Assembly (NCBI GenBank): GCA_014728075.1
Contig: WJMG01000071.1
Coordinates: 1-58,132 of the forward strand
Direction: 5' to 3'
Length of the DNA stretch: 58,132 bases
Origin: Candidatus Omnitrophota bacterium
GTDB lineage: Bacteria > Omnitrophota > Gorgyraeia > Tantalellales > Tantalellaceae
Part shown: positions 4,307-52,840 of the stretch, in pieces
Layout: every line of letters begins with the position of its first letter
Position numbering within the stretch: the stretch's first letter is position 1
The notes under the pieces: generated by a model
The model's input: the letters and a program-made list of their open reading frames with translations, nothing else
What the model was told of the DNA's origin: nothing
Database searches by the model: none
Made by a program: the position numbers and the translations under genes

Positions 4307-4319
4307 CCCGGAGTGTCCG

Positions 4320-27247: not shown

Positions 27248-28422
27248 GGATACTATTCGTGAACATGTACCCGGGGGACTCGGGCGGAGTGGAATACTAT
27301 ATAACCGCTCTGGCCCGCAAACTGGGCGAAATGGGGCATTTTTGCTCCATGGTCCACGGGGGCGGCGTTCCGGGAGATACCGTTTTCAGGGAGTGCCGCG
27401 CGGTGCCGGAGCTCTGGCGGCACGAACTGGTCTTCGCGACGGGAACGCGTGAAAAACTCGACGCTGTAATGGAAGAGCTGGCCCCGGACATAGTGTACCT
27501 GCACAACATAGAGAATGCCGGCGCTATAAGGTATTTTGCCGGCCGGTCCCCTTCCGTTAAATTCGTCCACGGATATAAATCCGTTGATCCCGACGGAAAG
27601 ATGCTTCTGTACGGACCGCTCGAAGCCAACAGGGCGCCTCTTTCGCCTTCCTGTTTTATCAGGGCTTTCACCAGAAAAAGTATGCCGAGGTCCCCGGTGA
27701 AAGCGGTCAAGGCGTACTTGAGGGCGTCTTCCGCCCTGAAAGCCTCATCGGAGCTGCCCGCCATAATAGCGGCGTCGGGGCACATGAAGCAGGTTCTGGC
27801 GGATAACGGACTGGAAGAGGAGAGAATATCGGTGATACCCTATTTTACAGATCTTTCGGGGGTCGAAACCCGCTCGGGCTGCAGCGGGCCGCTTCTTTTC
27901 GCCGGACGCCTTGCTGAGGGTAAGGGCCTCGATGTGCTTCTGGAAGTCTTGTCCCTGATCGAAGGGGATGTGTCCCTGGATGTTGTCGGGGACGGTCCCG
28001 AAAAACGCGAATTCAGCGAAAGGTCCCGGGAAATGGGTCTTTCCGGAAGGGTCAGATGCCACGGCTGGTCGGATCACTTTCTTATGGGTTCGTTTTACGA
28101 CAGGTGTTCTCTCCTGGTCCTTCCTTCCGTGTGGCCGGAACCCTTCGGTATCTGTGGAATAGAGGCGGCGGTCCGCGGGAAGCCCGCCGTAGCTTTCGAT
28201 GTAGGCGGGGTATCGGACTGGCTGATAGACGGGGAAACCGGATTTCTGATCGAGCCGTACAACAGGAAAAAGATGGCCGAAAAGATATTCCTTCTTCTTT
28301 CGGACCCCGGCCTGAGGAAGGCGATGGGTGAGCGCGCCCGCGAAAAAGCTTTGGAGAAATATGCGCCCTCTAAACACATAGAGAGGCTGATGGGGGTGTT
28401 CAGGGAGGTAGTAGGCAGTTAG
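27244..28422 (+). CDS. GT4 glycosyltransferase
   Basis: FAGRLAEGKG, PSVWPEPFGICGIEA and DGETGFL motifs. Confidence 0.92.
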   Translation: MRILFVNMYPGDSGGVEYYITALARKLGEMGHFCSMVHGGGVPGDTVFRECRAVPELWRHELVFATGTREKLDAVMEELAPDIVYLHNIENAGAIRYFAGRSPSVKFVHGYKSVDPDGKMLLYGPLEANRAPLSPSCFIRAFTRKSMPRSPVKAVKAYLRASSALKASSELPAIIAASGHMKQVLADNGLEEERISVIPYFTDLSGVETRSGCSGPLLFAGRLAEGKGLDVLLEVLSLIEGDVSLDVVGDGPEKREFSERSREMGLSGRVRCHGWSDHFLMGSFYDRCSLLVLPSVWPEPFGICGIEAAVRGKPAVAFDVGGVSDWLIDGETGFLIEPYNRKKMAEKIFLLLSDPGLRKAMGERAREKALEKYAPSKHIERLMGVFREVVGS

Positions 28423-38797: not shown

Positions 38798-39490
38798 GTG
38801 GAGAATATGAAGATCGCAATACATCAACCTCAATATATGCCATGGCTCGGTTATTTTGACAAGATGGACCGGGCCGATGTTTTCGTCGTTCTTGACGATG
38901 TGCAGTTCAAGAAGAACGAATGGCAGAACAGGAACAGGATAAGGACCGCCGATTCCTGGCAGTGGATGACCGTTCCCGTGATACACCATTTCGGCCAGAC
39001 GATCAGCAGCGCGGCCATAGACAATCATTCTAACTGGAAGAAAAAGCATTTAAAGGCGCTGGAGTCCAATTACGCCCGTGCCTGTTTTTACGATGAGCAC
39101 ATGCCCTTTTTCAGGGAGATCTATTCGCGGGAATGGACTTCACTCTGCGAGCTTAATTGTTGTATAATAGACAGAATAAAGGCGTTAGTCGGGATAACGG
39201 CCGATACGCTGCGAAGCTCGTCCATGGAGATAACAGGTTCGAGTACGCGAAGACTGGCGGATATATGCCTCGCCCTGGAAGCCGATACTTATATTTCCGG
39301 AGCGGGGGGAAGGGATTACCTTGACCTTTCTCTTTTTGAAGAGGCCGGGATAAAGGTCGAGTTCCAGGAATACAGGCACCCGGTCTACGAACAGGTCTTT
39401 GAGGGGTTTTTCCCTTACATGTCAGCGGTAGATCTTTTGTTCTGTAAGGGGCCGGAGAGCCTGGAGATCATCAGGAGCGGGAGGAAGTAA
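38798..39490 (+). CDS. wbqC: WbqC family protein
   Basis: AIHQPQYMPWLGYFDK, DDVQF, WQNRNRI, YISGAGG and MSAVDLLF motifs. Confidence 0.93.
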   Translation: MENMKIAIHQPQYMPWLGYFDKMDRADVFVVLDDVQFKKNEWQNRNRIRTADSWQWMTVPVIHHFGQTISSAAIDNHSNWKKKHLKALESNYARACFYDEHMPFFREIYSREWTSLCELNCCIIDRIKALVGITADTLRSSSMEITGSSTRRLADICLALEADTYISGAGGRDYLDLSLFEEAGIKVEFQEYRHPVYEQVFEGFFPYMSAVDLLFCKGPESLEIIRSGRK

Positions 39491-39691
39491 CCGGCTTCGC
39501 CGGAAGGAAAAAGTTAAAAGTAAAAAGTTAAAAATATACGAGTTTGCTTTATGCTATGGAAAGTCCAGAGGCGTGAAAACAAGAATTATGATATTGTCCC
39601 AAAAGACACATTACCTTTTTACTTTTGCCTTTTTACTTTTTACTTAAATAAGCGGAATTCATAGTTTAGTTTTAAAACATAGGAGTCTACG
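39491..39691 (+). repeat. About 200-bp direct repeat A, containing AAAAGTA element copy 3 and the RBS
   Basis: Matches 40314-40511 with 8 mismatches over the first 180 nt (manual alignment). Confidence 0.92.
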
Positions 39692-40312
39692 ATGAAAATT
39701 TTAGCAATAGGCGCGCATCCGGACGATATAGAGTACGGCTGCGGAGGGACGCTCCTTAAAATGAAAAAAGAACACGGTGCCGAAATAAGGTTTTTCGTCG
39801 CTTCGTGCGGTATCGTCGCCGGGAGCGCCGAGGTCAGGAAGAAAGAGCAGCAGGCGGCGGCCGACATACTGGGCGCCTCGCGGGTATACTGGGGCGGCCT
39901 TCCCGATACGGAAATAACACTGTGCAAGGACCTCGTAACACAGCTCGAGAAGATAATAGGGGAATACGGTCCCGATGTGATATTCGTTAACTATCCCGAT
40001 GATACTCATCAGGACCACAGGAACCTGGCAGAGGGTGTTATGGTCGCTACAAGGTACTGCAGGAAGGTGCTTTACTATGAGGATTATACTTCCAGGAAAT
40101 ACGAGCCTCACATCTTCGTGGACATAGGCGATGTCCTGGAGCAAAAAGTGGAGCTTTTGAAATGCCACAGGTCCCAGGTGGAAAGGGATTATCCTACGGA
40201 TCTCGATATAGTCGAAAGTGTCCACGCGGTCGCTAATTACCGGGGTTTCCAGGCAAAGGTCAAGTACGCGGAAAGTTTCCACGCGTTGAGATATCTTTTG
40301 GATAAAGTTTAA
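39692..40312 (+). CDS. PIG-L/LmbE family N-deacetylase
   Basis: AIGAHPDDIEYG, DTHQDH and HRSQ motifs. Confidence 0.93.
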   Translation: MKILAIGAHPDDIEYGCGGTLLKMKKEHGAEIRFFVASCGIVAGSAEVRKKEQQAAADILGASRVYWGGLPDTEITLCKDLVTQLEKIIGEYGPDVIFVNYPDDTHQDHRNLAEGVMVATRYCRKVLYYEDYTSRKYEPHIFVDIGDVLEQKVELLKCHRSQVERDYPTDLDIVESVHAVANYRGFQAKVKYAESFHALRYLLDKV

Positions 40313-40313
40313 A

Positions 40314-40511
40314 CCGGCTTCACCGGGAGGAAAAAGTTAAAAGTAAAAAGTTAAAAATATACGATTTTACTTTATGTTATGGAAAATCCAGGGGCGTGAA
40401 AACAAGAATTATAATATTGTCCCAAAAGACACATTACCTTTTTACTTTTGCCTTTTTACTTTTTACTTAAATAAGCGGAATTCATAGTTTAGTTTAAAAC
40501 AAGGAGTTTAC
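40314..40511 (+). repeat. About 200-bp direct repeat B, containing AAAAGTA element copy 4 and the RBS
   Basis: Near-identical to 39491-39691, offset by 823 bp. Confidence 0.92.
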
Positions 40512-41558
40512 ATGTCACAAAAAACAATTCCGCACTCCAGGCCGACGCTTGGCCAGGAAGAATTAAGAGCCGCCGCGAAGGTTATAGAATCAGGGCATAT
40601 CGCACAGGGCCCGAAAGTCAGCGAGTTCGAGGAAGCTCTGGCTGCTTTTCTGGGCGTTAAGGGCGCGGTCGTCACGAATTCCGGGTCGAGCGCCATGCAC
40701 CTGGCTTTAATGTCGCTCGGGCTTTCCGCCGGGGATGAGGTCGTTATGCCGTCTTTCGTCTGCACGGCCCCTCTCAACGCCGCCTACCAGGCGGGGCTCG
40801 GTCCGAGGGTATGCGATATAGAGGAGGAGAGTCTGAATGTATCCGCGGGTACTGTTTCAGAAGTCCTCGAGGATGCCGTCAAGGCCGCCGTTGTGCCTCA
40901 CATGTTCGGCAATGTCGCCGATGTGGAGGACATAGAGGACCTCGGCCTGACCGTTATAGAGGATTGCGCGCACGCTCTCGGGGCCCTTTACGGCGAAAAG
41001 AAAGCGGGGTCCTGCGGGAAGATGGGAATACTCTCGTTTTACGCCAATAAAATGATGGCCTGCGGCGAGGGCGGCGCGGTCGTGTCTGACGACGAGAACT
41101 TGCTCCGTTTCGTTTCGGACCGCAGGGATTACGACGAGAGAGGAGATTACCGCCCCAGGTACAATTACAAGATGACCGATATCCAGGCGGCGATAGGCCT
41201 TGAACAGCTGAAGAAACTTCCCGGGTTCGTCGAAAGGCGAAAAGAGATCGCTTCCCGGTACAGCGAAGCTTTCGCGGAGACCGGGGCCGTTCTGCCCGGT
41301 GTGGAGTTCGACCATGTTTACTACAGGTATGTTATTCTGGTTAAAAAGGACCTGGCGCAGGTCCTGAAAGAACTTGAGGTGAAAGGCGTGAAATGCGCCC
41401 GTCCCGTGCATTCGCCGCTCCACCGCGCCCTTGAGCTGAGGTCCGGTTTCCGAGTTACGGATAAGGTCTATTCCGGCGCCCTTTCCGTCCCGATATATCC
41501 TTCTTTGACCGATGAGGAGCAGGAGAAGGTCATCGAGGCGGTGATATCAAGCCTCTAG
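40512..41558 (+). CDS. DegT/DnrJ/EryC1/StrS PLP-dependent sugar aminotransferase
   Basis: NSGSSAMHLAL, IEDCAHALG, SFYANK (PLP lysine), GEGG and YNYKMTDIQAAIG motifs. Confidence 0.94.
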   Translation: MSQKTIPHSRPTLGQEELRAAAKVIESGHIAQGPKVSEFEEALAAFLGVKGAVVTNSGSSAMHLALMSLGLSAGDEVVMPSFVCTAPLNAAYQAGLGPRVCDIEEESLNVSAGTVSEVLEDAVKAAVVPHMFGNVADVEDIEDLGLTVIEDCAHALGALYGEKKAGSCGKMGILSFYANKMMACGEGGAVVSDDENLLRFVSDRRDYDERGDYRPRYNYKMTDIQAAIGLEQLKKLPGFVERRKEIASRYSEAFAETGAVLPGVEFDHVYYRYVILVKKDLAQVLKELEVKGVKCARPVHSPLHRALELRSGFRVTDKVYSGALSVPIYPSLTDEEQEKVIEAVISSL

Positions 41559-42042: not shown

Positions 42043-42771
42043 ATGCAAAGCGACCTCAACGATATCCTCGACTGCAAGAATAGAAAACTCGACATTAACG
42101 GTAATTGCCTTGAGATGCTTGATACCTGCCGGGCGATGTGCTGTGGTATGTTCAATATAGATATCACCCCCGGGGAACGGATTTCCGGCAAATACGAATA
42201 TGAGGCTTTTTGCCTTATCAGTGGCAGGGTGTGCGAAGACGAAAGCTCCGCCTGTCCGAATCGCAAGTACAGGCTCAAAAAGAGGTCCGACGGTTATTGC
42301 GTCCACCTTGACGAAGACAGCCGCAAATGTTCTATATATGAAGACCGGCCTCAGGCATGCAGGGATTTCAACTGCAAAGGAGGATGGAAGATAGGATTTG
42401 ATTTTTCCGAAGCTGACAGAAAACTTGAGATGAAACTGGAAGAACTGAGCGATGACATGGTCTTTATGCTGAATCCCCTGATAGGGGTGAAGGGTGTTTT
42501 TTATTCAGAGGCCAGGCAAGAGGTGTCCTATCAGTTCAGACCTGTAAGGGGGTGTTTTGATACTATAGAAAAGGAAAAGATCCGGGAGGCGGGTCTGAAT
42601 TCTAAAGTCCTCGCCGATATTATCGGAAGTTTCGACGGTAACAGGACTTTGGGTGAGGTCTTTGGGGCTCTGTCCGATACGCAGGTTTCCAGGGAAGCTG
42701 TGGACAGGGTCGTGTGGAGTCTTTTGAAATGTTCTATAATAGTTTTCAAGCACCCCGGAGGTATGGCATGA
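42043..42771 (+). CDS. YkgJ/FliB-like Cys-cluster protein with a C-terminal PqqD/RRE-like winged helix
   Basis: CxxxxxxCRAMCC and CVHLD...CSIYEDRPQACRDFNC. The C-terminus FDGNRTLGEV...VDRVVWSLLKCSII resembles an RRE. Confidence 0.75.
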   Translation: MQSDLNDILDCKNRKLDINGNCLEMLDTCRAMCCGMFNIDITPGERISGKYEYEAFCLISGRVCEDESSACPNRKYRLKKRSDGYCVHLDEDSRKCSIYEDRPQACRDFNCKGGWKIGFDFSEADRKLEMKLEELSDDMVFMLNPLIGVKGVFYSEARQEVSYQFRPVRGCFDTIEKEKIREAGLNSKVLADIIGSFDGNRTLGEVFGALSDTQVSREAVDRVVWSLLKCSIIVFKHPGGMA

Positions 42772-43883
42772 AGCGCAGGATAGCTTTCCCCGAGCAGGTA
42801 GATATAGCTCTCACCGGTAAGTGCAATCTAAGGTGTAAGCACTGCAATACCACAGAGACCTGGGATGGCAGGGACGAGCTTTCTTTTGGAGAGGTGAAGG
42901 ACCTTCTCGATCAGCTGAAAGAACAGAAAATATTCCGTCTCGACCTTTTCGGAGGAGAACCTTTTTATCATCCCAGGTTCTTCAAGTACCTTGAACTTAT
43001 AAACAGGTACCCGATGAGGGTCACTATCCTTACCAACGGTACGCTTATAGACGAAGAAGCGGTAAGGCATCTCAAAAAACTCAGGTTTCTCGCCATAATC
43101 CAGATAAGTATAGACGGCTCGAAACCCGAAATTCACGATTGGCAGAGGGGCGAAGGCTCGTTTGAGAAAGCCATGAGGGGTGTAAGGCTCCTGTTGAGCA
43201 ACGGTGTGCCGGTTACAATAAAGGCGATCCTGAACTCCCATAACTACACCGATCTTGATAATATGGTTGAGCTTGCCAGGGGACTGGGGCTGCCCGGAAT
43301 GCATTTCGGAGATGCCGTGGAATGCGGTAAGGCCGCTGTTTATTCGGACCAGATGAGTTTTGAGTCAGAGGCGCACCGCAAGATCATGGAAAATGTTTTC
43401 GAGGTCAAGAAGAAGTATCCGGGGTTTGAGATCGGAGGTACTCTCGGCCAAAAAATAGATATGTTAAAAGACTTTTATAAGCAGGGCCCCGGGAGCGGGA
43501 CAAGAGGCGTTTTTTCGACCTGTCCGGCAGGGCACAGCACTTTGTCTATACGGTCTGACGGTAAGGTGGTGCCGTGTTCCGCTTTCTGGACATTGATATG
43601 CGGGGATGTCAGAAAGAGTTCACTGAAGGATATATGGGAGAATTCGGAAATGCTGAACAGGATAAGGGATCTTTCGGACGATAAGCTGGCACAGCATTGT
43701 TCGGATTGCGGTAAATGTGACTACATGAGCCATTGTAACGGCGGATGCAGGGCCGCGGCCTATTATATGTCAAATAATGACCTCCGGGGAATAGATCCTT
43801 CTACCTGTCTTGTTTTTTCGAATATGACAGGGACAAGGATCCCCCGGGAAAAAGTGCTTTCCGGGGAGAAGGGTAATAAATGA
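42768..43883 (+). CDS. scmE: Radical SAM/SPASM peptide maturase, SynChlorMet ScmE-like
   Basis: CNLRCKHC, GGEP and QISIDG. SPASM region CPAG...DGKVVPC...CGKCDYMSHCNGGC. Confidence 0.8.
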   Translation: MKRRIAFPEQVDIALTGKCNLRCKHCNTTETWDGRDELSFGEVKDLLDQLKEQKIFRLDLFGGEPFYHPRFFKYLELINRYPMRVTILTNGTLIDEEAVRHLKKLRFLAIIQISIDGSKPEIHDWQRGEGSFEKAMRGVRLLLSNGVPVTIKAILNSHNYTDLDNMVELARGLGLPGMHFGDAVECGKAAVYSDQMSFESEAHRKIMENVFEVKKKYPGFEIGGTLGQKIDMLKDFYKQGPGSGTRGVFSTCPAGHSTLSIRSDGKVVPCSAFWTLICGDVRKSSLKDIWENSEMLNRIRDLSDDKLAQHCSDCGKCDYMSHCNGGCRAAAYYMSNNDLRGIDPSTCLVFSNMTGTRIPREKVLSGEKGNK

Positions 43884-45010
43884 GTTTTTGTGACCGGTCT
43901 CAAAGAAGTGAAAACAGGACAGGAGACTTTCCCCTGGGAACGCTTTATGTAAACCCTACCCGATACTGTAATTTAAGGTGCCGTCACTGCTGGATAGCGC
44001 CTCCTGTAAGGGAAGAACTCGTTCCCGGTACTGAAGAGATGTCCATGGACGAAATAACAGCTATAGCGGAAGCGGCTAAAGAGGCGGGGCTGGGCAGCAT
44101 AAAACTTACGGGAGGAGAGCCTCTTTTAAGAAAAGATATAGGGGAGCTCTTGAGTTACTGCGTTTCCTCCGATATAAGTGTTTTTATGGAGACTAACGGC
44201 ACGCTTGTGTCTCGGGATGTCGCCCGCATGCTGGCTGATAACAATGTATCTCAGGTATCCGTAAGCCTGGACAGTATGTTCCCGGAAGTGCATGATCGGC
44301 TTCGAGGAAAGAAAGGCGCTTTTGAGAGATCCGTTTCGGGTATAAAGAACCTTATAGCTTCAGGAATACGACCGCAGGTCATCTTAAGCCTCTATAGGGA
44401 GAATCTGCGGGGGTTTGAGAGGTTCCTTGATTTTATGGAAGACCTGGGGGTTAACGATGTCAAGGTCAATATCATAACCCCGATGGGAAGGGGGCATGAC
44501 CTTCAGGAGAAAGGGATGGCCCCTGTTCTTGAAGAGGTCCTTGAGTTTTACCGACGGACGGAAAAAATGAGGAATAACTTTCGCGGTAACTGCGGGGTGG
44601 ATGTTCCTCCCGCTTTTCAGAAGGTGGAAGATATTAAGAAAAGGGGATGCCGTGTGTGCGGGATAAAGAGCATACTGGGCATACTCCCGAACGGTGATGT
44701 TTCTATATGCGGGGTAGGGTTTATGGAACGGGATATGATCATGGGTAATGTGAGAAAGGCTCCCGGGAAGATAAAGGATATCTGGAAGAACGACCCGATA
44801 GTCCGTTTTATAAGGGAGAAACTGCCTGAAGAGCTTGAAGGGGTTTGCGGCATCTGTGTATTCAGGAAAGTCTGCCTGGGGGGATGCAGGGCGGAGGTAT
44901 GGTACAACAATCATGACCTCAAGTCCCCGTTCTGGTTCTGTCAGAAAGCTTACGATAAGGGTCTGTTCCCTTCAACGAGACTTATGCCCGAGGAATTGAG
45001 AGTTCGATGA
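43880..45010 (+). CDS. scmF: Radical SAM/SPASM peptide maturase, SynChlorMet ScmF-like
   Basis: CNLRCRHCWIAP and KLTGGEP. SPASM region CRVCGIKSILG...ICGVG, CGICVFRKVCLGGC and PFWFCQKAYDKGLFPSTR. Confidence 0.87.
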   Translation: MSFCDRSQRSENRTGDFPLGTLYVNPTRYCNLRCRHCWIAPPVREELVPGTEEMSMDEITAIAEAAKEAGLGSIKLTGGEPLLRKDIGELLSYCVSSDISVFMETNGTLVSRDVARMLADNNVSQVSVSLDSMFPEVHDRLRGKKGAFERSVSGIKNLIASGIRPQVILSLYRENLRGFERFLDFMEDLGVNDVKVNIITPMGRGHDLQEKGMAPVLEEVLEFYRRTEKMRNNFRGNCGVDVPPAFQKVEDIKKRGCRVCGIKSILGILPNGDVSICGVGFMERDMIMGNVRKAPGKIKDIWKNDPIVRFIREKLPEELEGVCGICVFRKVCLGGCRAEVWYNNHDLKSPFWFCQKAYDKGLFPSTRLMPEELRVR

Positions 45011-45783
45011 AAAGTTTTGTTCTCGAAAATTTCGGAATAAGATGCGGGGTAAATCTTGTAAATTCCGACGAAGAGGTCCCTTTTAAAACTGCCGCGGCGT
45101 ACGGCTGTTCTGATGTTGATATATATGTTTACAGAAAGAACAGCGTGCTTCCTGATGAAATAAAAGAAAAATACCGCCGGCCGTTCTTTGAGGCTTTTGA
45201 TTACGGGGAAAAGAGCGCTTTTTGTCTCGCGGATAATTCAGTGCCGTTTGATTTTCTTCTGGGCTTTGAGTTCAATGAGTCTATCATGGCTTTTCAGAAT
45301 TCCCTGGACCTTGTATTCTTTCACGCGGCGTGCGTTGTAAAGGATGGCAGCGCCTTTCTTTTCGCCGCGCCGAGTGGCGGCGGAAAGAGCACTATAGCAT
45401 TGCTTGCCGAGAGGAACGGATTAGAGGTTCTGGACGACGATTCCTGTGTGATCAGGAAAGACAAGGGTGTGTATTTTGTTCAGTCTTTTCCGGTCGATGT
45501 TCTTGATCCTTCCGCGGAAAAGGGGTACAGGGTCGAAAAGGTATTTTTTCTCGAGAAGTCAGACAAGAACAACTTAAAGAGCATTTCGCGTCTGACAGCT
45601 CTTATGAGATCCATGTCCGAGGCAAACGATCTTTATCCGTGGCAATACCCCGTTTCTGAAAGAATGTCTGCCAGGAAAAGGATATTTTGCTTTTTGGATG
45701 AAATGCTCAAGACAGTACCTTTCAATGTCCTGGAATTCAGTATAGATGAGGGAATTTTTTCATGTTCAGGGATATTCTCTTAA
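45007..45783 (+). CDS. HPr-kinase-like P-loop protein (ScmC-like)
   Basis: FHAACV, APSGGGKST and VLDDD form the HprK-type catalytic core. Confidence 0.75.
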   Translation: MKSFVLENFGIRCGVNLVNSDEEVPFKTAAAYGCSDVDIYVYRKNSVLPDEIKEKYRRPFFEAFDYGEKSAFCLADNSVPFDFLLGFEFNESIMAFQNSLDLVFFHAACVVKDGSAFLFAAPSGGGKSTIALLAERNGLEVLDDDSCVIRKDKGVYFVQSFPVDVLDPSAEKGYRVEKVFFLEKSDKNNLKSISRLTALMRSMSEANDLYPWQYPVSERMSARKRIFCFLDEMLKTVPFNVLEFSIDEGIFSCSGIFS

Positions 45784-47498
45784 ATGTTAAATACCGGATA
45801 AATGACCTTAGGCCCCTCATGGGGGATGTAAAGGTCATATTCTTGTATTCTTCGCGTCTTTTGGCGAAATACAAAAAAGACCTGATGAAGATATCGTTGC
45901 TGAAAGGCCTGACTTTTCCGATAGGGATAGCCGGAATTTATATGACAAAGAATGTTCTGGATAAAGGTATCTTTGCCGGGGATTTCAGGGTTTTTCTCTT
46001 TCTTACGGTCCTTGTTCTTCTGGCCTACACTTTATTGCATGCTCTTTCCTATGTTGTGGAGAAATTCACCGCGAAAGTAAGAACGGCTTTTTCCGTAGAT
46101 GTAAACCGTGACCTGGCCCGGAGGCTTTTCGGGATGAATTATCTCGAGATAAGGAAGATGACATCTTCCGAGAACGCTTTCTTCCTGGGGTATGATTACG
46201 GGAATATCGAAGCTCTTATGTTCGGGGAGATCCCGTCGCTTATTTCAGTTCTGAAAATACCGGTTATTTTTGTTCTATCCGCGGTTATGAGCCTGCCGCT
46301 TACGCTTCTTGTTCTCCTGGCCGTTCCGTCGCTTGTGGTACACCTCTTATGGGCCGCAAAGCGCAGAGAGGTCTACAGGACCGAAGAGATCGAAAAGGTA
46401 AGGAGATACAATTCGTCCCTTCACGACCTCTTTCTTAACCTGAAACTCATTAAAAGCTCCGGAAAAGAGGACTGGGCCCTGTCCAGGGTAATGTCATTTT
46501 TCAGGGATAAGGTCAGGTTCTCGATGAAAACAGACCTTCTTTCCCGTAAAGCGCATTATATCGGCAGTGTTTTTATGCGCGTTAATACGTCTGTTTTCTG
46601 GATTTTCGGGGGGTATCTTATTATCAGGGGCAGTTTGACCTTCGGTTCTTTCAGCGCTGTTCTGATGTACATGGCGGTTCTCCTCGGGGAGATGGAGAAA
46701 GTAAGCAACGCGGTGCAGAGCCTTAACGAGGAAAAAGTATCTATCGCAAGATGTTCTTCTTTTATTAAAGAGATGTGTATTGCCGGAAAAGAGCGGCAAA
46801 AAGTGTTCGATGAAGGTATGTTTGAAAAGGGGCTGGAGTTCAGGGAAGTTTCTTTCGGCTATGAAGCGGGGAAACCCGTTCTTGAAGGTGTTTCTCTTTT
46901 TATCCCCCCGGCAGGCTGGTCCTTGATAAAAGGAGCTTCCGGCATAGGTAAGACGACGCTCTTAAGCCTTATTGTCAGGCTTTTTGAACCCTGGAAAGGC
47001 GAGATACTCGCGGGCGGAACAGATGTGGCACGAATAGATAAGGATGTTTTTTATAGAAATGTGTCTATCGTTCAGCAGGAGTCGTACATACTTAACGATA
47101 CCCTTGCCCGGAACATTTTTCTGGGAAACTCGTTTGACGACAGAGAGATGGAGAAGGTCCTGATGTGCGCGGGGTTAAGCGGGTTCGCGGAAGAACTTCC
47201 GGAAGGGTATGATACGATGCTTGAAGAGTCGGGAGCGGATCTTTCGGGCGGACAGCGGCAGCGTATATCAATAGCCAGGGCTTTAGCCGGAGGGCCTAAA
47301 GTCCTTGTGCTGGACGAAGCGACCTCTTTTGTGGATCCCGGAAAAGAAGAAGAGATCTTCGGTAAGATAAGGACAAGTTTTCCCGATATCCAGGTCATAT
47401 TCGTTACTCACAGGGAAACGGCCCGTAAGTACGCCGATCATGTTTTTGTTATGGAGAACGGCGCTGTTCTCAGCGAAAAAGAGAATGTTCAAATATAA
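45762..47498 (+). CDS. ABC exporter (TMD+NBD), no C39 peptidase domain
   Basis: N-terminal TM helices, GASGIGKTT, LSGGQRQR, VLDEAT and VTHR motifs. Confidence 0.93.
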   Translation: MFRDILLNVKYRINDLRPLMGDVKVIFLYSSRLLAKYKKDLMKISLLKGLTFPIGIAGIYMTKNVLDKGIFAGDFRVFLFLTVLVLLAYTLLHALSYVVEKFTAKVRTAFSVDVNRDLARRLFGMNYLEIRKMTSSENAFFLGYDYGNIEALMFGEIPSLISVLKIPVIFVLSAVMSLPLTLLVLLAVPSLVVHLLWAAKRREVYRTEEIEKVRRYNSSLHDLFLNLKLIKSSGKEDWALSRVMSFFRDKVRFSMKTDLLSRKAHYIGSVFMRVNTSVFWIFGGYLIIRGSLTFGSFSAVLMYMAVLLGEMEKVSNAVQSLNEEKVSIARCSSFIKEMCIAGKERQKVFDEGMFEKGLEFREVSFGYEAGKPVLEGVSLFIPPAGWSLIKGASGIGKTTLLSLIVRLFEPWKGEILAGGTDVARIDKDVFYRNVSIVQQESYILNDTLARNIFLGNSFDDREMEKVLMCAGLSGFAEELPEGYDTMLEESGADLSGGQRQRISIARALAGGPKVLVLDEATSFVDPGKEEEIFGKIRTSFPDIQVIFVTHRETARKYADHVFVMENGAVLSEKENVQI

Positions 47499-47509
47499 GG
47501 AGAGTTATT

Positions 47510-47782
47510 ATGGAAAGAAAATGTCCATTACGGAATCCGGATGTTGTTGTCAGAAAAGAGAAGGATGAGGCGCTGCTCTTCGATCCTTCCGACGGGAATA
47601 TGATGTGTATGAATTCAACCGGTATCTTTGTCTGGGATGAGTGCGACGGGAAGAGTTCCGCCGAAGAGATATCCCGGAAGATAGAGGAAGAGTTCGAGGT
47701 TTCTTCCGAAGTCGCGGAAAAGGATTGCCGGTCTTTTCTTGAAGAGCTGGAAAAGTCCGGATTTATAGGGTATGCTTTTTGA
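47510..47782 (+). CDS. PqqD family RiPP recognition element (ScmD-like)
   Basis: RNPDVVVRKE, ALLFDP, MNSTGIFVWDECDG and FLEELEKSGFI. Confidence 0.92.
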   Translation: MERKCPLRNPDVVVRKEKDEALLFDPSDGNMMCMNSTGIFVWDECDGKSSAEEISRKIEEEFEVSSEVAEKDCRSFLEELEKSGFIGYAF

Positions 47783-47795
47783 TCGGGAGGAAATT

Positions 47796-48092
47796 ATGGC
47801 TAAAAAGAAGAAAAAATACGAAGCGCCTATGGTATTCGATCTTGCAAACGTAGGCAGGGGCGCCCAGGCCCAGAGCTGCTCGTCTGGGCGTAATGCTAAC
47901 GCGTCATGTAAGGCCGGAAGAAGGGCGGGAAGTTTATGCAATGTAGGCTCTCAGGCCCTCTCCAGCTGTTCTAACGGCCCGGATCATGTGCCCGGAACCG
48001 ACTGTAAATCAGGCCCCAGCGCGTTGGGTAAGAAATGCTGGGGCGGAGGATACGCGGTAGGGCAGTGTAAAACGGGCGGACTGAAGGTATAG
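47796..48092 (+). CDS. RiPP precursor peptide (98 aa): YxxP leader plus seven CxxG repeats
   Basis: GGGAGG RBS. Leader KKKYEAPMVFDL. Cys at 28, 38, 48, 58, 70, 81 and 91, each in CxxG. Lies directly after PqqD. Confidence 0.88.
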   Translation: MAKKKKKYEAPMVFDLANVGRGAQAQSCSSGRNANASCKAGRRAGSLCNVGSQALSSCSNGPDHVPGTDCKSGPSALGKKCWGGGYAVGQCKTGGLKV

Positions 48093-48107
48093 TTGACGGC
48101 GGCTTAT

Positions 48108-48857
48108 ATGAGATTTACTGTTGAGGGCCAGAGCATGCGTCCTTTTCTGAGGGATCTGGATGTTTGTGTTTCCGAAAAAGTTTCTCCCGCAAAGATCTTC
48201 CCGGGAGACCTTGTCCTTTATGACAGCGAAGTCAGCGCTGAAGTTATTGTTCACAGGATCATTAAGATAGATAAAAGAAAGTCCGTTGCCTTTATAAAAG
48301 GCGATAACGAGCCCGGCATGGACGCGGCAGACAGGGTCCCGCTTGAGGATATTATGGGGAAGGTGCTGTTCGTGGAAAGGGGCTCGAGGGTTTTTGATCT
48401 CAATAAAAGATGGCGGAAGATCTGTGCCGGTATTATCGCTTTTCTTTCTCTCCGCGACCTTACGCCCCTTGTCGCTCAGAGAAGGTTCCTGAGCCCTCTT
48501 GTTCTTGCTGTTTCCGGGAACGGATTATATAAAATTTTCAGGGAGCGGTTTTACGCAAAGCTTCAATTCTGCTGCGTAAAAAAGGAAGGATATTATAAAG
48601 TTTTTTCATATCTGGGAAGAAGCATGAATGCTGAAGCTTTCCTGCAGCAATATTCTGAGGGGCATGTTACAGTCTCGTCATATATAAAATACCGCGACAG
48701 GAACAGCGGTTTCGCTAGGATATTTCTTGAGAAGATATTGAAAGTAGTGGACGAGAAATACGGAAAGGATTCTTGTGTTCATATACTTGAGGGGGAATTC
48801 AAGGAATTGATCTCCGGGTGCAAGGAAGTTGCTTCTTCCGAAAGGGTCTATTTATGA
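48108..48857 (+). CDS. S26/S24 signal-peptidase-like protein, soluble (alternative TTG start at 48093)
   Basis: GQSMRPFL (catalytic Ser), GDLVLY, VIVHRII and IKGDN. No N-terminal TM anchor. Confidence 0.8.
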   Translation: MRFTVEGQSMRPFLRDLDVCVSEKVSPAKIFPGDLVLYDSEVSAEVIVHRIIKIDKRKSVAFIKGDNEPGMDAADRVPLEDIMGKVLFVERGSRVFDLNKRWRKICAGIIAFLSLRDLTPLVAQRRFLSPLVLAVSGNGLYKIFRERFYAKLQFCCVKKEGYYKVFSYLGRSMNAEAFLQQYSEGHVTVSSYIKYRDRNSGFARIFLEKILKVVDEKYGKDSCVHILEGEFKELISGCKEVASSERVYL

Positions 48858-49948
48858 GCTCTCTCGCCCTAAATGCTTTTGAGGGAAAAGAGTTCTCTCC
48901 GGAAGAGGAGATAGTTTCTATCTGCGCGAGACAAAAATTGACCGAGCAGGATAAGCAAAATTATCGTTCTATTGCCGCATCCGGAAATATCGACTGGGAC
49001 AAGGTTTTAGGTGTCTCGGAGGAGAATCAGGTCACGCCTCTTGTTTACCGCAATCTGCAGGTCTTAAAGGGGTTTCCCGATAAGATCTTCATGTCTTTAA
49101 GGGAAAGCGCGGCCCGTACTATGGCGCGTAATACGCTTATATTATCGCGCATGGAAAAGTTTAGCCGCAAAGAGGACGCTCTTTTCCTGAAGGGGTTTCC
49201 TTTTGCTGTGGATGTCTATGAGGATCCTTCGTTGAGGGAGTTTTCCGATGTTGATGTTCTTGTCAGGGATATGGACGCGTTCGGACGGGTTCTTTCCGAA
49301 GAGGGTTTTCATCCTGACGATAACGAAGAGGATGACGGATACAGGTCTCAAAGGACATATGCCGATAAAGACGGTCTGGTGATAGATGCTCATGTGGATG
49401 CGATAGGGCGGAGGCTTCACAGTGAGATGACAGGTCTTGGCGAAGGCATGTGGGAAGGTGCCAGGCATCTTGAATACGGCGGCCTCAAGTTGAAGACGCC
49501 GGACCTGGAACACACTCTTATTTTTCAAGCGGTCCACCTTGCCATGCACCACGGTTTTTCAGGTCTAAAATGGTTAGTTGACATAAATGAGTTCGTAAGA
49601 AGATACGAGAACGAGATAGACTGGGAAAGGTTGTTAGAGCTTTGCTCGAAATATAAGGTCAAGAGGCCGGTTTATTATACGCTGTTGTTTACGCGAGATC
49701 TGTTCGATACGCCTGTCCCCGAAAAGGTGCTGGACAGGTTCTCCCGGGTGAGGAGGCCTCTGGACAGGTGGCTTTTCCGTAAGATTAAAAATAGTTTCGG
49801 GACAGATTATCTGGCCGAACTATTTATGTTCGATACGATAGCGGATACCGTGAAGTTCGTTTTCTTGAGCTTTGTAAAATATCCGGGACACTTTCTGTGT
49901 TTCGGGAGAATAGCGGGGAAAGTAGTCAGGGCGGCAGTAAGTAAATAG
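48854..49948 (+). CDS. Nucleotidyltransferase family protein (type found with lasso/PqqD clusters)
   Basis: LFLKG, LREFSDVDVLV, IDAH, HLAMHHG, LKWLVDI and IDW motifs. Confidence 0.85.
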   Translation: MSSLALNAFEGKEFSPEEEIVSICARQKLTEQDKQNYRSIAASGNIDWDKVLGVSEENQVTPLVYRNLQVLKGFPDKIFMSLRESAARTMARNTLILSRMEKFSRKEDALFLKGFPFAVDVYEDPSLREFSDVDVLVRDMDAFGRVLSEEGFHPDDNEEDDGYRSQRTYADKDGLVIDAHVDAIGRRLHSEMTGLGEGMWEGARHLEYGGLKLKTPDLEHTLIFQAVHLAMHHGFSGLKWLVDINEFVRRYENEIDWERLLELCSKYKVKRPVYYTLLFTRDLFDTPVPEKVLDRFSRVRRPLDRWLFRKIKNSFGTDYLAELFMFDTIADTVKFVFLSFVKYPGHFLCFGRIAGKVVRAAVSK

Positions 49949-49971
49949 CGAACAGGGGGGATATCACTTAC

Positions 49972-50083
49972 TTTTACTTGATTCCCGCTTTCGCGGGAAT
50001 GACATTTTTTATTTTCACTTTTATGCTTTAAAAAAATAAAAGTAGAAGTTGTCATCCCCGCAATGGGTTTGAGCGGGGATCAA
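49972..50083. repeat. Pair of REP-like units around an AT-rich spacer (REPIN-like)
   Basis: TTGATTCCCGCTTTCGCGGGAATGACA (49978-50004) and TGTCATCCCCGCAATGGGTTTGAGCGGGGATCAA (50050-50083). Confidence 0.78.
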
Positions 50084-50106
50084 ACAAGAATAAGTTAGGC
50101 GGTTAG

Positions 50107-50694
50107 ATGGCTATGAATGAGGACTTATCGCATAACAACACGATGAAAAGAATGCTCTGGTGGGGAGCTATAACTCTCTATCTGGGGGTGGTGTATTCCA
50201 CTTTATCCATCGGCCCCGATATCTGGGACGGCATTAACGCGGCGCTGGGAGGTAAGGCCCTCGGAGTGCTTTACCTTCTGGCGATACTGGCCCTTGTCGC
50301 GGTAGTTTATTACATGGAGGAGATAAAAAAGGAGAAGAGGCCGCTTAACTATATGATCTTCTTTTTCCTGGCGGGACTTTTCTTTTTTATAATCTCTCTC
50401 CACGGCCATCCCGCGGAGAAGGTCCACATGGCGGAATACGGTCTCCTGGCCGTACTTGTATACAACGCGCTTAAGCTGGACATGGGACGGTACGACAGCC
50501 GGCTGTATATCCTGGGCGGCCTGATCTGTTCTCTGGCGGGCCTTGTAGATGAAATAATACAGTGGTATCTTCCCAACAGGTATTTTGACTGGCGGGATGT
50601 GGGCTTTAATGTAGCCGGCGCCCTGATAGCGCTGGCAATTATAAGGTTCAACATACTTAAGGGGCCGGAGAAGCGACCCGAGAGCGATTTTTGA
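50107..50694 (+). CDS. VanZ family membrane protein
   Basis: EKVHMAEYGLL, DEIIQWYLPNRYFDWRDVGFN and TM helices. Confidence 0.88.
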   Translation: MAMNEDLSHNNTMKRMLWWGAITLYLGVVYSTLSIGPDIWDGINAALGGKALGVLYLLAILALVAVVYYMEEIKKEKRPLNYMIFFFLAGLFFFIISLHGHPAEKVHMAEYGLLAVLVYNALKLDMGRYDSRLYILGGLICSLAGLVDEIIQWYLPNRYFDWRDVGFNVAGALIALAIIRFNILKGPEKRPESDF

Positions 50695-50830: not shown

Positions 50831-51211
50831 ATGAACAAAGTCATTCTCGCTATTGACGATAACAGGGATTTCCTGGAGACTTTGAAGGATATACTGGAAC
50901 ACGAAGGCTACCGGGCGGTCCTTTTGACCGATCCTACCAAAACGGAAGAATATATAGAGAATTATTCGCCGGACCTTATAATACTCGATATCTTCATGCC
51001 AAAAAGGACCGGGTTCAATATACTGGAAGACCTTTCGGATAACGGCATGCACGAAGACATACCGAAGATATTCCTTACCTGCCTCGATAACCACATCGAA
51101 AAGATGACCGCCAGAGCCAGGGGCGCGTGTGAATATCTGACCAAACCTTTCGAGCCGGAAGAGCTTATAGAGGTGATAAGGGAATGCCTGGAAGGACAGA
51201 AGCAAAGGTAA
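50831..51211 (+). CDS. Single-domain response regulator (CheY-like)
   Basis: AIDDN, ILDIFMP, FLT and YLTKPF motifs. Confidence 0.93.
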   Translation: MNKVILAIDDNRDFLETLKDILEHEGYRAVLLTDPTKTEEYIENYSPDLIILDIFMPKRTGFNILEDLSDNGMHEDIPKIFLTCLDNHIEKMTARARGACEYLTKPFEPEELIEVIRECLEGQKQR

Positions 51212-51216
51212 GCGAT

Positions 51217-51579
51217 ATGGCCCGAGCGAAAAAAATAGTGATCGCGGACGATAACAGGGAGATGTGCGACCTGGTACAGGATATCTTTTCCGAGAACGGA
51301 TACGAGGTCGATTGTGTCCATAACGGATACGAGCTGATGTCCTACCTGGAGAACAATTCCCCTTCGGTGATAATACTGGACCTTATGATGCCGGAGAAGG
51401 ACGGCATATCGGTGCTGGGCTCCCTGAAACAGCTTTCGCCTTATTCCAGGATAATAATCTACACCGGCTACCAGGAATACGAGAAAAGCGTCTACGCCAG
51501 GGCGGTCGACAGGTTCCTGGTCAAGGGCAAGAGCATAGAGGAGCTCATAGAGGCCGTAGATGAGCTGGCGGTAGCGTAA
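51217..51579 (+). CDS. Single-domain response regulator
   Basis: IADDN, ILDLMMPEKDG, YTG and FLVK motifs. Confidence 0.92.
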   Translation: MARAKKIVIADDNREMCDLVQDIFSENGYEVDCVHNGYELMSYLENNSPSVIILDLMMPEKDGISVLGSLKQLSPYSRIIIYTGYQEYEKSVYARAVDRFLVKGKSIEELIEAVDELAVA

Positions 51580-51721: not shown

Positions 51722-52840
51722 ATGAAATTCACTATAGAACACAGAGACAAGGATACAAAAGCCAGGTGCGGGACGATGACGACCTGTCATGGTGAGGTGT
51801 CGACGCCTGTTTTCATGCCTGTTGCCACGCAGGCGGGGGTTAAGGGTATAACCCCGGACGAGCTCAGGGACTGCCGGGTCGAGATGATCATTTCCAACGC
51901 CTACCATCTTTATCTGAGGCCCGGAGAAGAGATAATTTCCAATGCCGGCGGCCTGCACAGGTTCATGGGCTGGGACGGGGTCATAACCACCGACAGCGGC
52001 GGTTTTCAGGTCTTCAGCCTGGCGGAGCTGCGCAAGATAAAAGAGGAAGGGGTGGAGTTCCGCTCGCATGTGGACGGTTCGTATCATTTTTTCTCGCCCG
52101 AGAGCGTGGTCGATTTCCAGCACGCGATAGGGAGCGACATACTCATGCCTCTTGACGAATGTGTGCATTACCCCGCCGCAAGGGACTATGTGGAGGATTC
52201 AGTGGGCCTTACCACCCGCTGGGCGGAGAGGTCGAAAGAGAGGTTCCTGCAGAAAGAGGGCAGGTCCGCTCTTTTCGGTATAGTCCAGGGAAGCACATAC
52301 AGGGACCTCAGGAAGCGGTCGGTCGAGGAGCTTGCCGCCCTGGACATGGACGGTTATTCCCTAGGGGGCATAGGGGTAGGGGAACCGGTCGAGCTTATAC
52401 ACGAGATAACCGATCATACGGCTTCACTTCTGCCGGAAGACAAAGTACGCTATCTTATGGGCGTGGGCAGTCCCCCTGAAGTCCTCGAAGCTGTTTCTTC
52501 GGGCATAGACATGTTCGACTGCGTGGTGCCCACCAGGAACGGAAGGAACGGCCAGGCGTTCACCTTTGACGGTGAGCTGCAGCTCAGGAACGCCCCTTTC
52601 AAGGACGATTTCGCTCCCATAGAGGAGGGTTGCGGGTGCTATGCCTGCCGGAACCATACGAGGGGTTATATAAGGCACCTCTTCAACGCTTCCGAGATGC
52701 TTGCCCCGCGTCTTATATCCCTGCATAATATCTGTTTTTATTCCAGGTTGACGGAACTCGCCAGGCAAGCGGTCAGGCAGGGAAGGTTCGCCGAATTCAA
52801 GAAAGAGTTCGTCTCGAGGTATTCCGCCGGGAAAAAATAG
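51722..52840 (+). CDS. tgt: tRNA-guanine transglycosylase
   Basis: TPVFMPVAT, NAYHLYLRPG, TDSGGFQVFSL, DMFDCVVPTR and CGCYAC zinc site. Confidence 0.98.
   Translation: MKFTIEHRDKDTKARCGTMTTCHGEVSTPVFMPVATQAGVKGITPDELRDCRVEMIISNAYHLYLRPGEEIISNAGGLHRFMGWDGVITTDSGGFQVFSLAELRKIKEEGVEFRSHVDGSYHFFSPESVVDFQHAIGSDILMPLDECVHYPAARDYVEDSVGLTTRWAERSKERFLQKEGRSALFGIVQGSTYRDLRKRSVEELAALDMDGYSLGGIGVGEPVELIHEITDHTASLLPEDKVRYLMGVGSPPEVLEAVSSGIDMFDCVVPTRNGRNGQAFTFDGELQLRNAPFKDDFAPIEEGCGCYACRNHTRGYIRHLFNASEMLAPRLISLHNICFYSRLTELARQAVRQGRFAEFKKEFVSRYSAGKK

Follow-up and report, generated by a model that had tools for sequence, protein, structure and literature searches.

A seven-unit CxxG precursor peptide in an Omnitrophota operon that appears to combine SynChlorMet-like and linear polyphosphorylated peptide-like genes

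The DNA analysed here, referred to as the window, is a stretch of 58,132 nucleotides from a Candidatus Omnitrophota bacterium (assembly GCA_014728075.1, contig WJMG01000071.1, positions 1 to 58,132, forward strand). It encodes a short peptide with seven regularly spaced C-x-x-G units, located in a compact run of genes on the same strand. I conclude with high confidence that this peptide is a real precursor in a hybrid operon. On one side, this operon possesses the pair of radical S-adenosylmethionine (radical SAM)/SPASM enzymes typical of the SynChlorMet cassette; on the other, a kinase, a leader binder, a signal-peptidase-like protein, a nucleoside triphosphate (NTP)-transferase and an exporter of the type described for linear polyphosphorylated peptides (LPPs). 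That the operon merges these two sets, and matures its peptide along the route proposed below, has in my estimate a probability of about 0.55.

The precursor and its peptide family

All seven Cys of the precursor open a CxxG motif, and successive Cys are separated by 10, 10, 10, 12, 11 and 10 residues. Five of the seven units (C28, C38, C48, C70 and C81) read CxxGxxA. In shuffles of the 73-residue precursor core, CxxG at seven of seven Cys was reached once in 200000, and spacings all within 10–12 in none of 200000; among the 757 open stretches of at least 40 amino acids in the window, the runner-up contains four CxxG. The seven-unit pattern is therefore far beyond chance. Tandem Repeats Finder identified no DNA-level repeat under the precursor (47700–48200, minimum score 30), and the periodicity is therefore held in the protein motif, rather than arising from recent DNA duplication. 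The precursor is present as a single copy in the whole genome. A possible second precursor at 27924–28328, with four CxxG, was rejected, as it is an Arg/Gly-rich off-frame stretch with irregular spacing.

The precursor is a real gene under purifying selection. In a codon alignment with its orthologue from the related locus L032, there are 27, 25 and 60 differences at codon positions 1, 2 and 3 respectively, with a pN of 0.273 and a pS of 0.749, and four further pairs behave alike. The closest relative (P0002), labeled at its source as a hypothetical protein of 'Candidatus Tantalella remota' (Omnitrophota), is 60% identical and retains all seven Cys and all seven Gly. A chance open frame, not a gene, would account for the short length, and for the fact that no Pfam or NCBIfam model reaches its cut-off on the precursor itself. 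Nonetheless the ribosome-binding site, the purifying selection, the motif statistics, and the homologues from many other phyla, as well as from 17 of the 401 genomes searched in this phylum, leave this explanation next to no probability.

In order to gather relatives, an exhaustive HMMER search with the precursor was run against 1.84 billion representatives. It returned 28 matches at E ≤ 1e-3, compared to only one relative for a word-indexed search. Of these, 25 are peptides of 66–101 amino acids, with a common Lys-rich N-terminus/leader and 3–7 CxxG units. Three matches were set aside: P0006 and P0007, which are long low-complexity repeat proteins, and P0005. The latter (149 amino acids) is precursor-like over residues 1–59, with a leader and three units, while the remainder is a different sequence; it may be a fusion, or a frame artefact of metagenome assembly.

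Residues Y8 and P11 are invariant in the 27 family sequences, and Y-x-x-P-x-V is the most conserved leader feature of the family, with the Tyr located 19–24 residues from the first Cys. No hydrophobic signal sequence is present in the precursor, whose leader is Lys-rich with YxxP. A logo of 152 units from 27 peptides shows Cys at 100%, Gly(+3) at 97%, Ala(+6) at 64% and Pro(+6) at 14%. Successive Cys are 10 residues apart in 90 of 125 intervals, with a range of 9 to 15, and the number of CxxG is odd in 14 of the 27 members. The precursor thus belongs to a family defined by a K-Y-E-x-P leader and 2–9 CxxGxxA units. A first-pass annotation, made from the DNA letters alone, had claimed seven regularly spaced CxxG motifs, five of them CxxGxxA, and selection on the motif itself. 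The translation and the shuffles verify the motifs and their spacing, and the unit logo, together with the lack of a DNA repeat, agrees with selection on the motif.

A few variations on this theme were observed. In loci L083, L101, L107 and L109, some units read C-x-P-[TNS]-G, with the Gly at +4, beside ordinary C-x-x-G units. Genome G351 (locus L037, 2080–2785) encodes two tandem eight-unit precursor paralogues, and five precursor-like matches lie on a single contig (contig 36) of the Omnitrophota genome G140.

The family was also compared to TIGR04252, the NCBIfam model (49 positions) for ScmA, the catalogued precursor of the SynChlorMet cassette. This model matches 19 of the 27 family members at E ≤ 1, the best at 2.9e-6, but none of the 27 reaches its cut-off of 35 bits; the window peptide (P0001) is at 12.3 bits, with an E-value of 0.15. 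As judged from these profile matches, the family grades into ScmA, and the window peptide belongs to the ScmA line, of which it is a longer and divergent representative from the Omnitrophota branch of the cassette.

A SynChlorMet-like cassette

The window operon resembles the canonical SynChlorMet cassette in gene content. That cassette consists of two SPASM radical SAM enzymes, a PqqD homologue, a ScmC-type protein and a small Cys-repeat peptide; here too, two radical SAM/SPASM enzymes are encoded in one cassette together with a PqqD protein, an HprK-like protein and a Cys-repeat peptide. For each of these five proteins, the matching Scm model ranks first or is the sole match, in agreement with the first-pass annotation, which had placed the precursor beside ScmE/ScmF homologues and a PqqD-type protein; Pfam matches concur. 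The scores are nevertheless all short of the curated cut-offs, with 218.7 bits for ScmE (TIGR04250, cut-off 400), 313.7 for ScmF (TIGR04251, cut-off 400), 40.6 for ScmC (TIGR04249, cut-off 125) and 58.7 for ScmD (TIGR04248, cut-off 100), in addition to the ScmA score given above. The window peptide, with 98 amino acids and seven units, is also longer than the 49 positions of the ScmA model, and the operon adds an exporter, a signal-peptidase-like protein, a PF14907 protein, a CxxCxxCC protein and a VanZ protein. By the curated cut-offs, the window proteins are therefore outside the five Scm equivalog families; by gene content and best matches, they are their relatives. I found no paper on the SynChlorMet cassette, or on the chemistry of its peptides.

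Pfam identifies Radical_SAM and SPASM domains in the ScmE-like protein, and both radical SAM proteins possess the CxxxCxxC motif and a SPASM CxxCx5-6Cx3C motif (CxxCx5Cx3C in the ScmE-like protein). Both begin directly at the radical SAM domain and are therefore without a leader-binding domain of their own, which fits with the presence of a separate PqqD protein. The best solved relatives of the ScmE-like protein are SkfB (53.6 bits) and anSME (52.9 bits), and those of the ScmF-like protein are cytosylglucuronate decarboxylase (59 bits) and SuiB (52.7 bits). The NCBIfam models for SbtM (78.4 bits) and for the ranthipeptide enzyme PapB (91.5 bits) also match the ScmE-like enzyme. In the ranthipeptide freyrasin (PapA/PapB), a repeated CxxxD motif receives one thioether per repeat, linked to the beta-carbon, from a single enzyme; the similarity of the window enzyme to PapB is at the superfamily level only. 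On sequence grounds, these relatives are remote and chemically mixed, and give no guidance on the chemistry.

I next looked at the distribution of the cassette. The peptide-family profile, searched against 401 genomes sampled from the phylum, matched in the 17 mentioned above (G000 included), and 6 of the 25 other genomes of the window's own family match. These six same-family genomes keep the order ScmE, ScmF, ScmC, ABC exporter, PqqD, precursor, peptidase, PF14907 and then VanZ, as far as their contigs reach, and the CxxCxxCC gene was found upstream in two of them. Four more distant Omnitrophota genomes have the same genes in other orders. The precursors of these genomes have 3 to 8 units.

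In a wider search, an alignment of ScmF-like proteins identified at least 567 relatives, among 600 pattern matches in a collection of species-representative genomes. The best 80 of these loci are from Omnitrophota, Desulfobacterota, other 'delta proteobacteria', Margulisiibacteriota, Aminicenantes/Acidobacteriota, Chloroflexota, Nitrospirota, Planctomycetota, Verrucomicrobiota, Bacteroidota, Chlorobium and several methanogens. The flanks of these 80 loci were searched for neighbours, using BLASTP with the window proteins (E ≤ 1e-4), which undercounts divergent families, and the peptide-family hidden Markov model (HMM; E ≤ 1e-3) for the precursor. A ScmE-like gene is present in 71 loci, a PqqD gene in 68, a precursor-like open reading frame (ORF) in 56, a ScmC-like gene in 46, an ABC (ATP-binding cassette) exporter in 32, a PF14907 gene in 27 and a signal-peptidase-like gene in 20. 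The precursor-like ORFs total 71, of which 1, 8, 11, 15 and 17 contain 0, 2, 3, 4 and 5 CxxG respectively, and 8, 5, 4 and 2 contain 6, 7, 8 and 9. The comparison of repeat number beside ScmE/ScmF homologues, as proposed in the first-pass annotation, therefore gives a range of 2–9, with the seven units of the window peptide toward the long end but not unique.

In some of these loci, the precursor-like ORFs found with the family HMM lie beside ScmF proteins that score above the NCBIfam cut-off. These canonical ScmF proteins, from Chlorobium, Syntrophobacteraceae and Methanogenium loci, are at 591, 511 and 539 bits respectively, compared to 304 bits for the ScmF of another Omnitrophota locus. 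Two loci show additional enzymes. In L040 (7394–9916), an 841-residue ScmF-like radical SAM/SPASM protein is fused to a C-terminal SAM-dependent methyltransferase, beside a precursor-like ORF. In L054 (Desulfobacteraceae, 3244–4725), a B12-binding radical SAM enzyme is encoded between the PqqD gene and the ScmF-like gene, which suggests a further tailoring step in some cassettes.

The coordinates of all features are listed in Table 1. Within the gene run 42043–49948, neighbouring genes overlap or are no more than 15 nucleotides apart. For two genes, a start downstream of the listed one is likely. In the ScmE-like gene, the ATG overlaps the upstream stop, and orthologue alignments begin ∼19 residues past the GTG; in the PF14907 gene, the ATG likewise overlaps the upstream stop, and orthologue alignments begin 8–12 residues past the GTG. 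Homologues of the CxxCxxCC protein are found at the same position in L032 and L034; no NCBIfam model matches this protein, and its C-terminal 102 amino acids show no similarity to the PqqD protein. The VanZ gene is syntenic in L034, L036 and L037. The response-regulator and tgt-like genes further downstream are syntenic with the cassette in L034 and L036, and part of the neighbourhood conservation is therefore plain genome synteny. Between 41400 and 51000, neither terminator-like sites (12, versus a mean of 10.6) nor promoter-like sites (11, versus 11.1) are above shuffled sequences.

Table 1. Positions of the precursor, the operon genes and flanking features in the window.
Feature	Positions	Strand	Basis and remarks
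WbqC-like, PIG-L-family deacetylase and DegT-type aminotransferase genes	38798-41558	+	Pfam and NCBIfam
CxxCxxCC protein, first gene of the operon	42043-42771	+	Pfam PF03692, 26.5 bits (cut-off 23)
Radical SAM/SPASM protein, ScmE-like	42768-43883	+	TIGR04250 best match; listed from GTG 42714, likely start ATG 42768
Radical SAM/SPASM protein, ScmF-like	43880-45010	+	TIGR04251 best match
ScmC-like P-loop protein, HprK/PEPCK fold, putative peptide kinase	45007-45783	+	TIGR04249
ABC exporter, fused permease and ATPase	45762-47498	+	Pfam ABC_membrane and ABC_tran
Discrete PqqD/RRE-family protein, ScmD-like, 90 residues	47510-47782	+	Pfam PqqD, 67.5 bits
Ribosome-binding site GGGAGG	47785-47790	+	Read from the sequence; 5 nt upstream of ATG 47796
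Precursor ORF	47796-48092	+	98-residue translation, identical to the peptide quoted in the first-pass annotation
Precursor leader, residues 1-25, Y8-E-A-P11-M-V13	47796-47870	+	Y8/P11 invariance; putative cleavage point between residues 23 and 25
Precursor core, seven C-x-x-G units and stop codon	47871-48092	+	Cys 28, 38, 48, 58, 70, 81, 91
Archaeal-type signal-peptidase-I-like protein, putative leader peptidase	48108-48857	+	TIGR02228; listed from TTG 48093
PF14907 (NTP_transf_5) nucleotidyltransferase-like protein	48854-49948	+	Pfam, 159.6 bits; listed from GTG 48818, likely start ATG 48854
Terminator-like hairpin, 8 pairs and T-run (candidate only)	49981-50000	+	Consensus match
VanZ-family membrane protein, possibly associated	50107-50694	+	Pfam VanZ, 39.5 bits
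Two adjacent single-domain response-regulator-like ORFs, and tRNA-guanine transglycosylase-like gene (tgt)	50831-51579 and 51722-52840		BLAST to orthologues, translations

Processing genes and the link to linear polyphosphorylated peptides

LPPs have been described in Bacillota (Popov et al., Nat Commun 2026; PMC13381572), and in that paper they are called restricted to this phylum. Their precursors contain YxxPxV in the leader, and their clusters are located inside capsular polysaccharide loci. As described there, the kinase LppK adds one to four phosphates to the core Ser3, and the leader is removed by LppS only when LppB presents the substrate, the unphosphorylated precursor being cleaved poorly. 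In the precursor LppA, a Tyr is located at -16 from the cleavage site. The window's ScmC-like protein, ABC exporter, PqqD protein, precursor, peptidase and PF14907 protein correspond to the same six functions.

The leader binder is the component for which this parallel can be followed furthest in sequence. A profile of the window PqqD protein and ten orthologues (11 sequences), searched against solved chains, matches the lasso leader binder TbiB1 (2e-8), LppB (9x8z_B, 4.9e-8), PbaB1 (9x90_B, 7e-7) and TfuB1 (1e-4), while PqqD proper is only matched at an E-value of 0.14. The adjacent PqqD protein thus appears closest to the B1-type leader binders of lasso peptides and LPPs. The window therefore encodes a discrete lasso/LPP-type RRE (RiPP recognition element, RiPPs being peptides made by the ribosome and modified after translation), next to a leader, Y8-E-A-P-M-V, that matches [Y/W]xxPx[L/V/I/F/A]. 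Solved complexes of such binders contain exactly this YxxPxV leader motif (PMC13381572). With Y8 and P11 invariant in the family, this is in line with the first-pass annotation, which had recognized YxxPx(L/V) as the RRE-binding leader motif.

A complex of the PqqD protein and leader residues 1–38 was also predicted, and obtained a score of 0.43, compared to 0.01 for the best of three controls, with at least 91% contact agreement across runs and a partner predicted local distance difference test (pLDDT) value of at least 54. Of 80 solved complexes, 58 pass the mark employed, as do 2 of 110 mismatched pairs, but passes at scores of 0.60 or below include only 7 of the 80 solved complexes, plus both passing mismatches. 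Since similar complexes have been solved, the pass may reflect memory, and the prediction lends weak support to the interaction.

The ScmC-like protein has no similarity below an E-value of 0.6 in a sequence search against solved structures, with a match of 28.3 bits to HprK-related kinase A in NCBIfam. The precomputed family PF27840 is found on all eight of eight ScmC-like homologues, and residues H106, G126, K127 and T129 are invariant in 17 sequences, including a P-loop Gly-Lys-x-Thr/Ser. An AlphaFold2 model (pLDDT 89.5, predicted template modelling score (pTM) 0.86) was compared to solved structures with Foldseek, which identified PEPCK (TM-score by query 0.41–0.51) and the HPr kinase/phosphatases 1knx and 1ko7, with E-values of 4e-6 to 5e-5; the TM-scores by query to the nearest solved folds are modest overall (0.27–0.51). 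By their annotated functions, this HprK/PEPCK-fold protein, the PF14907 protein and the ABC exporter are candidate counterparts of the HprK-like kinase, NTP transferase and MsbA-like exporter (LppK, LppN and LppD) of the LPP set. For the exporter, the best NCBIfam matches are of LssB, HlyB and MsbA types; these alignments begin at profile position ∼130–170, and the protein is therefore without the N-terminal peptidase part.

The N-terminal half of the protein encoded directly after the precursor passes the archaeal-type signal peptidase I model TIGR02228 (sigpep_I_arch) with 53.9 bits (cut-off 51.85). S9 (GQSM), H49 (VHRI) and D66/D72/D75 are the catalytic candidates, and the Ser-to-His distance of 40 residues compares to 39 in LppS (S29, H68). 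The protein has no N-terminal membrane anchor, and an additional C-terminal domain of ∼140 amino acids (∼residues 110–249) has no Pfam match. A homologue search with this protein returned only the query itself, but orthologues follow the precursor in the six same-family loci. In a protein atlas, its rows name S24/S26 peptidases, and neighbouring clusters include peptidase-GNAT, S24-peptidase/VanZ and peptidase-PF14907 fusions (scores 0.79–0.86, TM 0.43–0.60); these are leads only.

As in the LPP system, the operon lies beside polysaccharide genes. Directly upstream are genes for a GT4 glycosyltransferase, a WbqC-like protein, a PIG-L-family deacetylase and a DegT-type sugar aminotransferase. 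Synteny of the WbqC/PIG-L/DegT trio is kept in L032, L033, L034 and L036, the four related Omnitrophota loci whose sequence extends far enough, which alone could reflect inherited genome order, as the tgt and response-regulator genes are conserved too. However, the trio is also found, at 42–48% identity, in the Desulfobacterota loci L054 (513–2908) and L078 (870–3249), where it is located immediately upstream of Scm-like cassettes and in the same orientation; in L078, a PF00953 phosphoglycosyl transferase is encoded between trio and cassette. In L129 (Omnitrophota, 3419–5712), only PIG-L and WbqC are present, downstream of the PF14907 gene. WbqC has two matches in each of four genomes checked, one of them beside the cassette. 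Only 6 loci out of 97 show the linkage, or 7 if L129, which covers more of the contig of L049, is included; it may be more than chance and echoes the observation of the LPP paper, and these genes are possibly a sugar module linked to the cassette.

The window operon also departs from the LPP system, with its two radical SAM/SPASM enzymes, its Cys-repeat core and its Omnitrophota host. In the main text of the LPP paper, the terms radical SAM, rSAM and SPASM do not occur (PMC13381572).

Lasso peptides provide a further comparison. According to the reports on these, HprK homologues and a nucleotidyltransferase phosphorylate and glycosylate the peptide (PMC8498205), and paeninodin and pseudomycoidin share with the window a YxxPxL-type leader, a B1-type RRE, an HprK-like kinase and nucleotidyltransferase tailoring (PMC8498205, PMC10368454). 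However, neither a macrolactam synthetase (C)/lasso cyclase nor a B2 cysteine protease was identified by Pfam and NCBIfam among the ten ORFs of 42043–50694, and the window peptide family has no conserved C-terminal Ser.

Proposed maturation and its alternatives

Exploiting this information, a route for the maturation of the precursor can be proposed. The PqqD-type protein would bind the leader through Y8-x-x-P11-x-V13, as homology and, weakly, the complex prediction suggest. The two radical SAM/SPASM enzymes would then modify the seven C-x-x-G units independently. That the Cys are the radical SAM targets, each unit acting on its own, is somewhat better than an even bet; the number of units varies from 2 to 9 with both parities, and Gly stays at +3 from Cys in 97% of units, although the units themselves range in length from 9 to 15, hence the proposed independence. 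A thioether of any kind falls slightly short of even odds. In the form favoured here, each Cys sulfur would be joined to the alpha-carbon of Gly(+3), giving a string of small unnested thioether rings. This is favoured because Cys and Gly(+3) are the only invariant core positions, and because of the precedent of the enzyme GggB, but this specific ring remains doubtful.

GggB forms Cys25-Ser28 and Cys31-Gly34 S-C-alpha rings in streptosactin (PMC8172795, PMC9389541). In this type 2 sactipeptide (GggA/GggB), CxxS/CxxG units are each closed to an unnested four-residue ring by one radical SAM/SPASM enzyme, as would be the case for the window units. With this precedent, one enzyme-made ring per repeat, an option favoured by the first-pass annotation, would be consistent with the data. 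Streptosactin however has two rings and one enzyme, compared to seven units and two enzymes here, and the resemblance is in the substrate motif only.

The enzymes may instead act on the Cys but make another product: a thioether to Ala(+6) or to a beta or gamma carbon, an inter-unit link, a thiooxazole rearrangement of the SbtM type, or a formylglycine of the anSME type. Ala(+6) is indeed the third conserved position, anSME, SbtM and PapB all have some similarity to the ScmE-like enzyme (see above), and two different enzymes could make two kinds of bond. Yet position +6 is Pro in 14% of units and otherwise variable, in contrast to the near-invariant Gly(+3); inter-unit links fit poorly with a variable unit length and a fixed Cys-to-Gly distance; and the enzyme similarities are at the superfamily level. 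I consider such other Cys chemistry rather unlikely.

The next steps of the proposed route are by analogy to LppK/LppN and to the phosphorylated lasso peptides. The ScmC-like kinase would phosphorylate a core serine, most plausibly S30 of the first unit. At C+2, the first unit has Ser in 17 of the 27 family members (Thr in 2), compared to 20 of 121 later units; as these sequences are related, this enrichment is a hint. The PF14907 protein may then extend the phosphate, possibly with a sugar derived from the WbqC/PIG-L/DegT genes.

It could be argued that this phosphorylation, or polyphosphorylation, is the defining modification, as in LPPs, with the Cys remaining free thiols for a metal or a later reaction, and the radical SAM enzymes acting elsewhere, for example in epimerisation. 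The kinase, RRE, peptidase, NTP-transferase and exporter do equal the LPP core set, and the Ser enrichment points the same way. Against this, no Ser or Thr is invariant in the core, where Cys and Gly(+3) are; the ScmA-like peptides travel with ScmE and ScmF, as the neighbour counts illustrate; and no predicted fold places the thiols for a metal. This alternative is accordingly improbable. An AlphaFold2 model of the precursor, from a 31-row alignment, has a mean pLDDT of 43.2 (below 50 in the core), a pTM of 0.15 and no secondary structure. A self-folding, metal-binding solenoid, which the first-pass annotation had considered, was therefore rejected as a supported reading, although the peptide may fold once modified.

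The same annotation had disfavoured simple disulfides, and here the data agree: besides the odd CxxG counts in the family, the number of Cys is odd in 42 of the 71 precursor-like ORFs from ScmF loci, and obligatory disulfide pairing is unlikely judging from these counts. An ordinary secreted, disulfide-stabilised peptide with unrelated neighbouring enzymes would be consistent with a Cys-rich sequence, and with the adjacent exporter and signal-peptidase-like genes. It is however very improbable, given the seven Cys, the Lys-rich YxxP leader in place of a hydrophobic signal sequence, the strict synteny with RRE and radical SAM genes in several phyla, and the signal-peptidase-like protein without a membrane anchor.

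In the final steps of the proposed route, and by analogy to LppS, the archaeal-type signal-peptidase-like protein would cut off the leader at a point 2–5 residues before Cys28, on substrate presented by the leader binder, and the ABC transporter would export the product. In the window's own subfamily, the junction reads [A/V]-x-A-[Q/A]-x-C, which is A-x-A-like. The cut can thus be placed within residues 23–26: an A-x-A reading would put it after A25, while a Tyr at -16, as in LppA, would put it after A23. A-x-A as a cleavage motif for the whole family was rejected, as it is limited to this subfamily, and the junction is variable over 89 precursors.

A number of observations weigh against this merged, two-set interpretation of the operon and its maturation. 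On the radical SAM side, the window proteins stay under the curated cut-offs of all five Scm models. The best solved relatives of the enzymes score only 53–59 bits and include anSME, SuiB and cytosylglucuronate decarboxylase, which do not make thioethers, and the best non-Scm NCBIfam matches of the pair are WgkB, heme and mycofactocin enzymes. The proposed route gives no reason for having two radical SAM enzymes. The ring chemistry is drawn from the Cys/Gly invariance and one precedent, and Gly(+3) could be kept for a turn rather than as an acceptor, with the Gly(+4) units of L083, L101, L107 and L109 to be considered here.

On the LPP side, the extended leader consensus YxxPxVLxHQxIxFETxxS is absent, with the window leader continuing as F-D-L-A-N-V-G-R-G-A. 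In the published system, LppN showed no activity, and its deletion changed nothing (PMC13381572). The candidate phospho-serine position is Ser in only 17 of 27 family members, and position 27, a Ser here, is Ser in only 2 of 8 aligned precursors of the own subfamily. Finally, LppS relies on F-3/E-2/T-1, not on A-x-A (PMC13381572), and among the 89 precursors there is no clean link between an A-x-A-like junction and the detected peptidase genes.

In its most complete form, the product would be a hybrid, with up to seven four-residue Cys-Gly thioether rings and a polyphosphate, perhaps with an amino sugar, trimmed and exported; SynChlorMet and LPP peptides would then be the two ends of one large, polysaccharide-tied family. 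This extended version is unlikely, but if true, would represent a new type of hybrid natural product.

The combination of a SynChlorMet radical SAM pair with an LPP-type processing set was not found in the published literature. The locus links an orphan radical SAM system to machinery characterised in 2026, and this link gives testable roles to four opaque genes: the kinase, the signal-peptidase-like leader peptidase, the NTP-transferase and the exporter. With nine genes in a compact arrangement and a substrate of seven units, the operon lends itself well to heterologous reconstitution; each unit would serve as an internal replicate of one and the same reaction, and the product chemistry is directly testable in this way. 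By its sequence, the precursor is a new, long variant of the catalogued ScmA precursor. Cys-repeat peptides of the ScmA type are widespread, with ScmF relatives in Omnitrophota, Desulfobacterota, Chloroflexota, Acidobacteriota, Chlorobium and methanogens, and the presence of the LPP-type genes beside one of them suggests that LPP-like processing extends beyond Bacillota.

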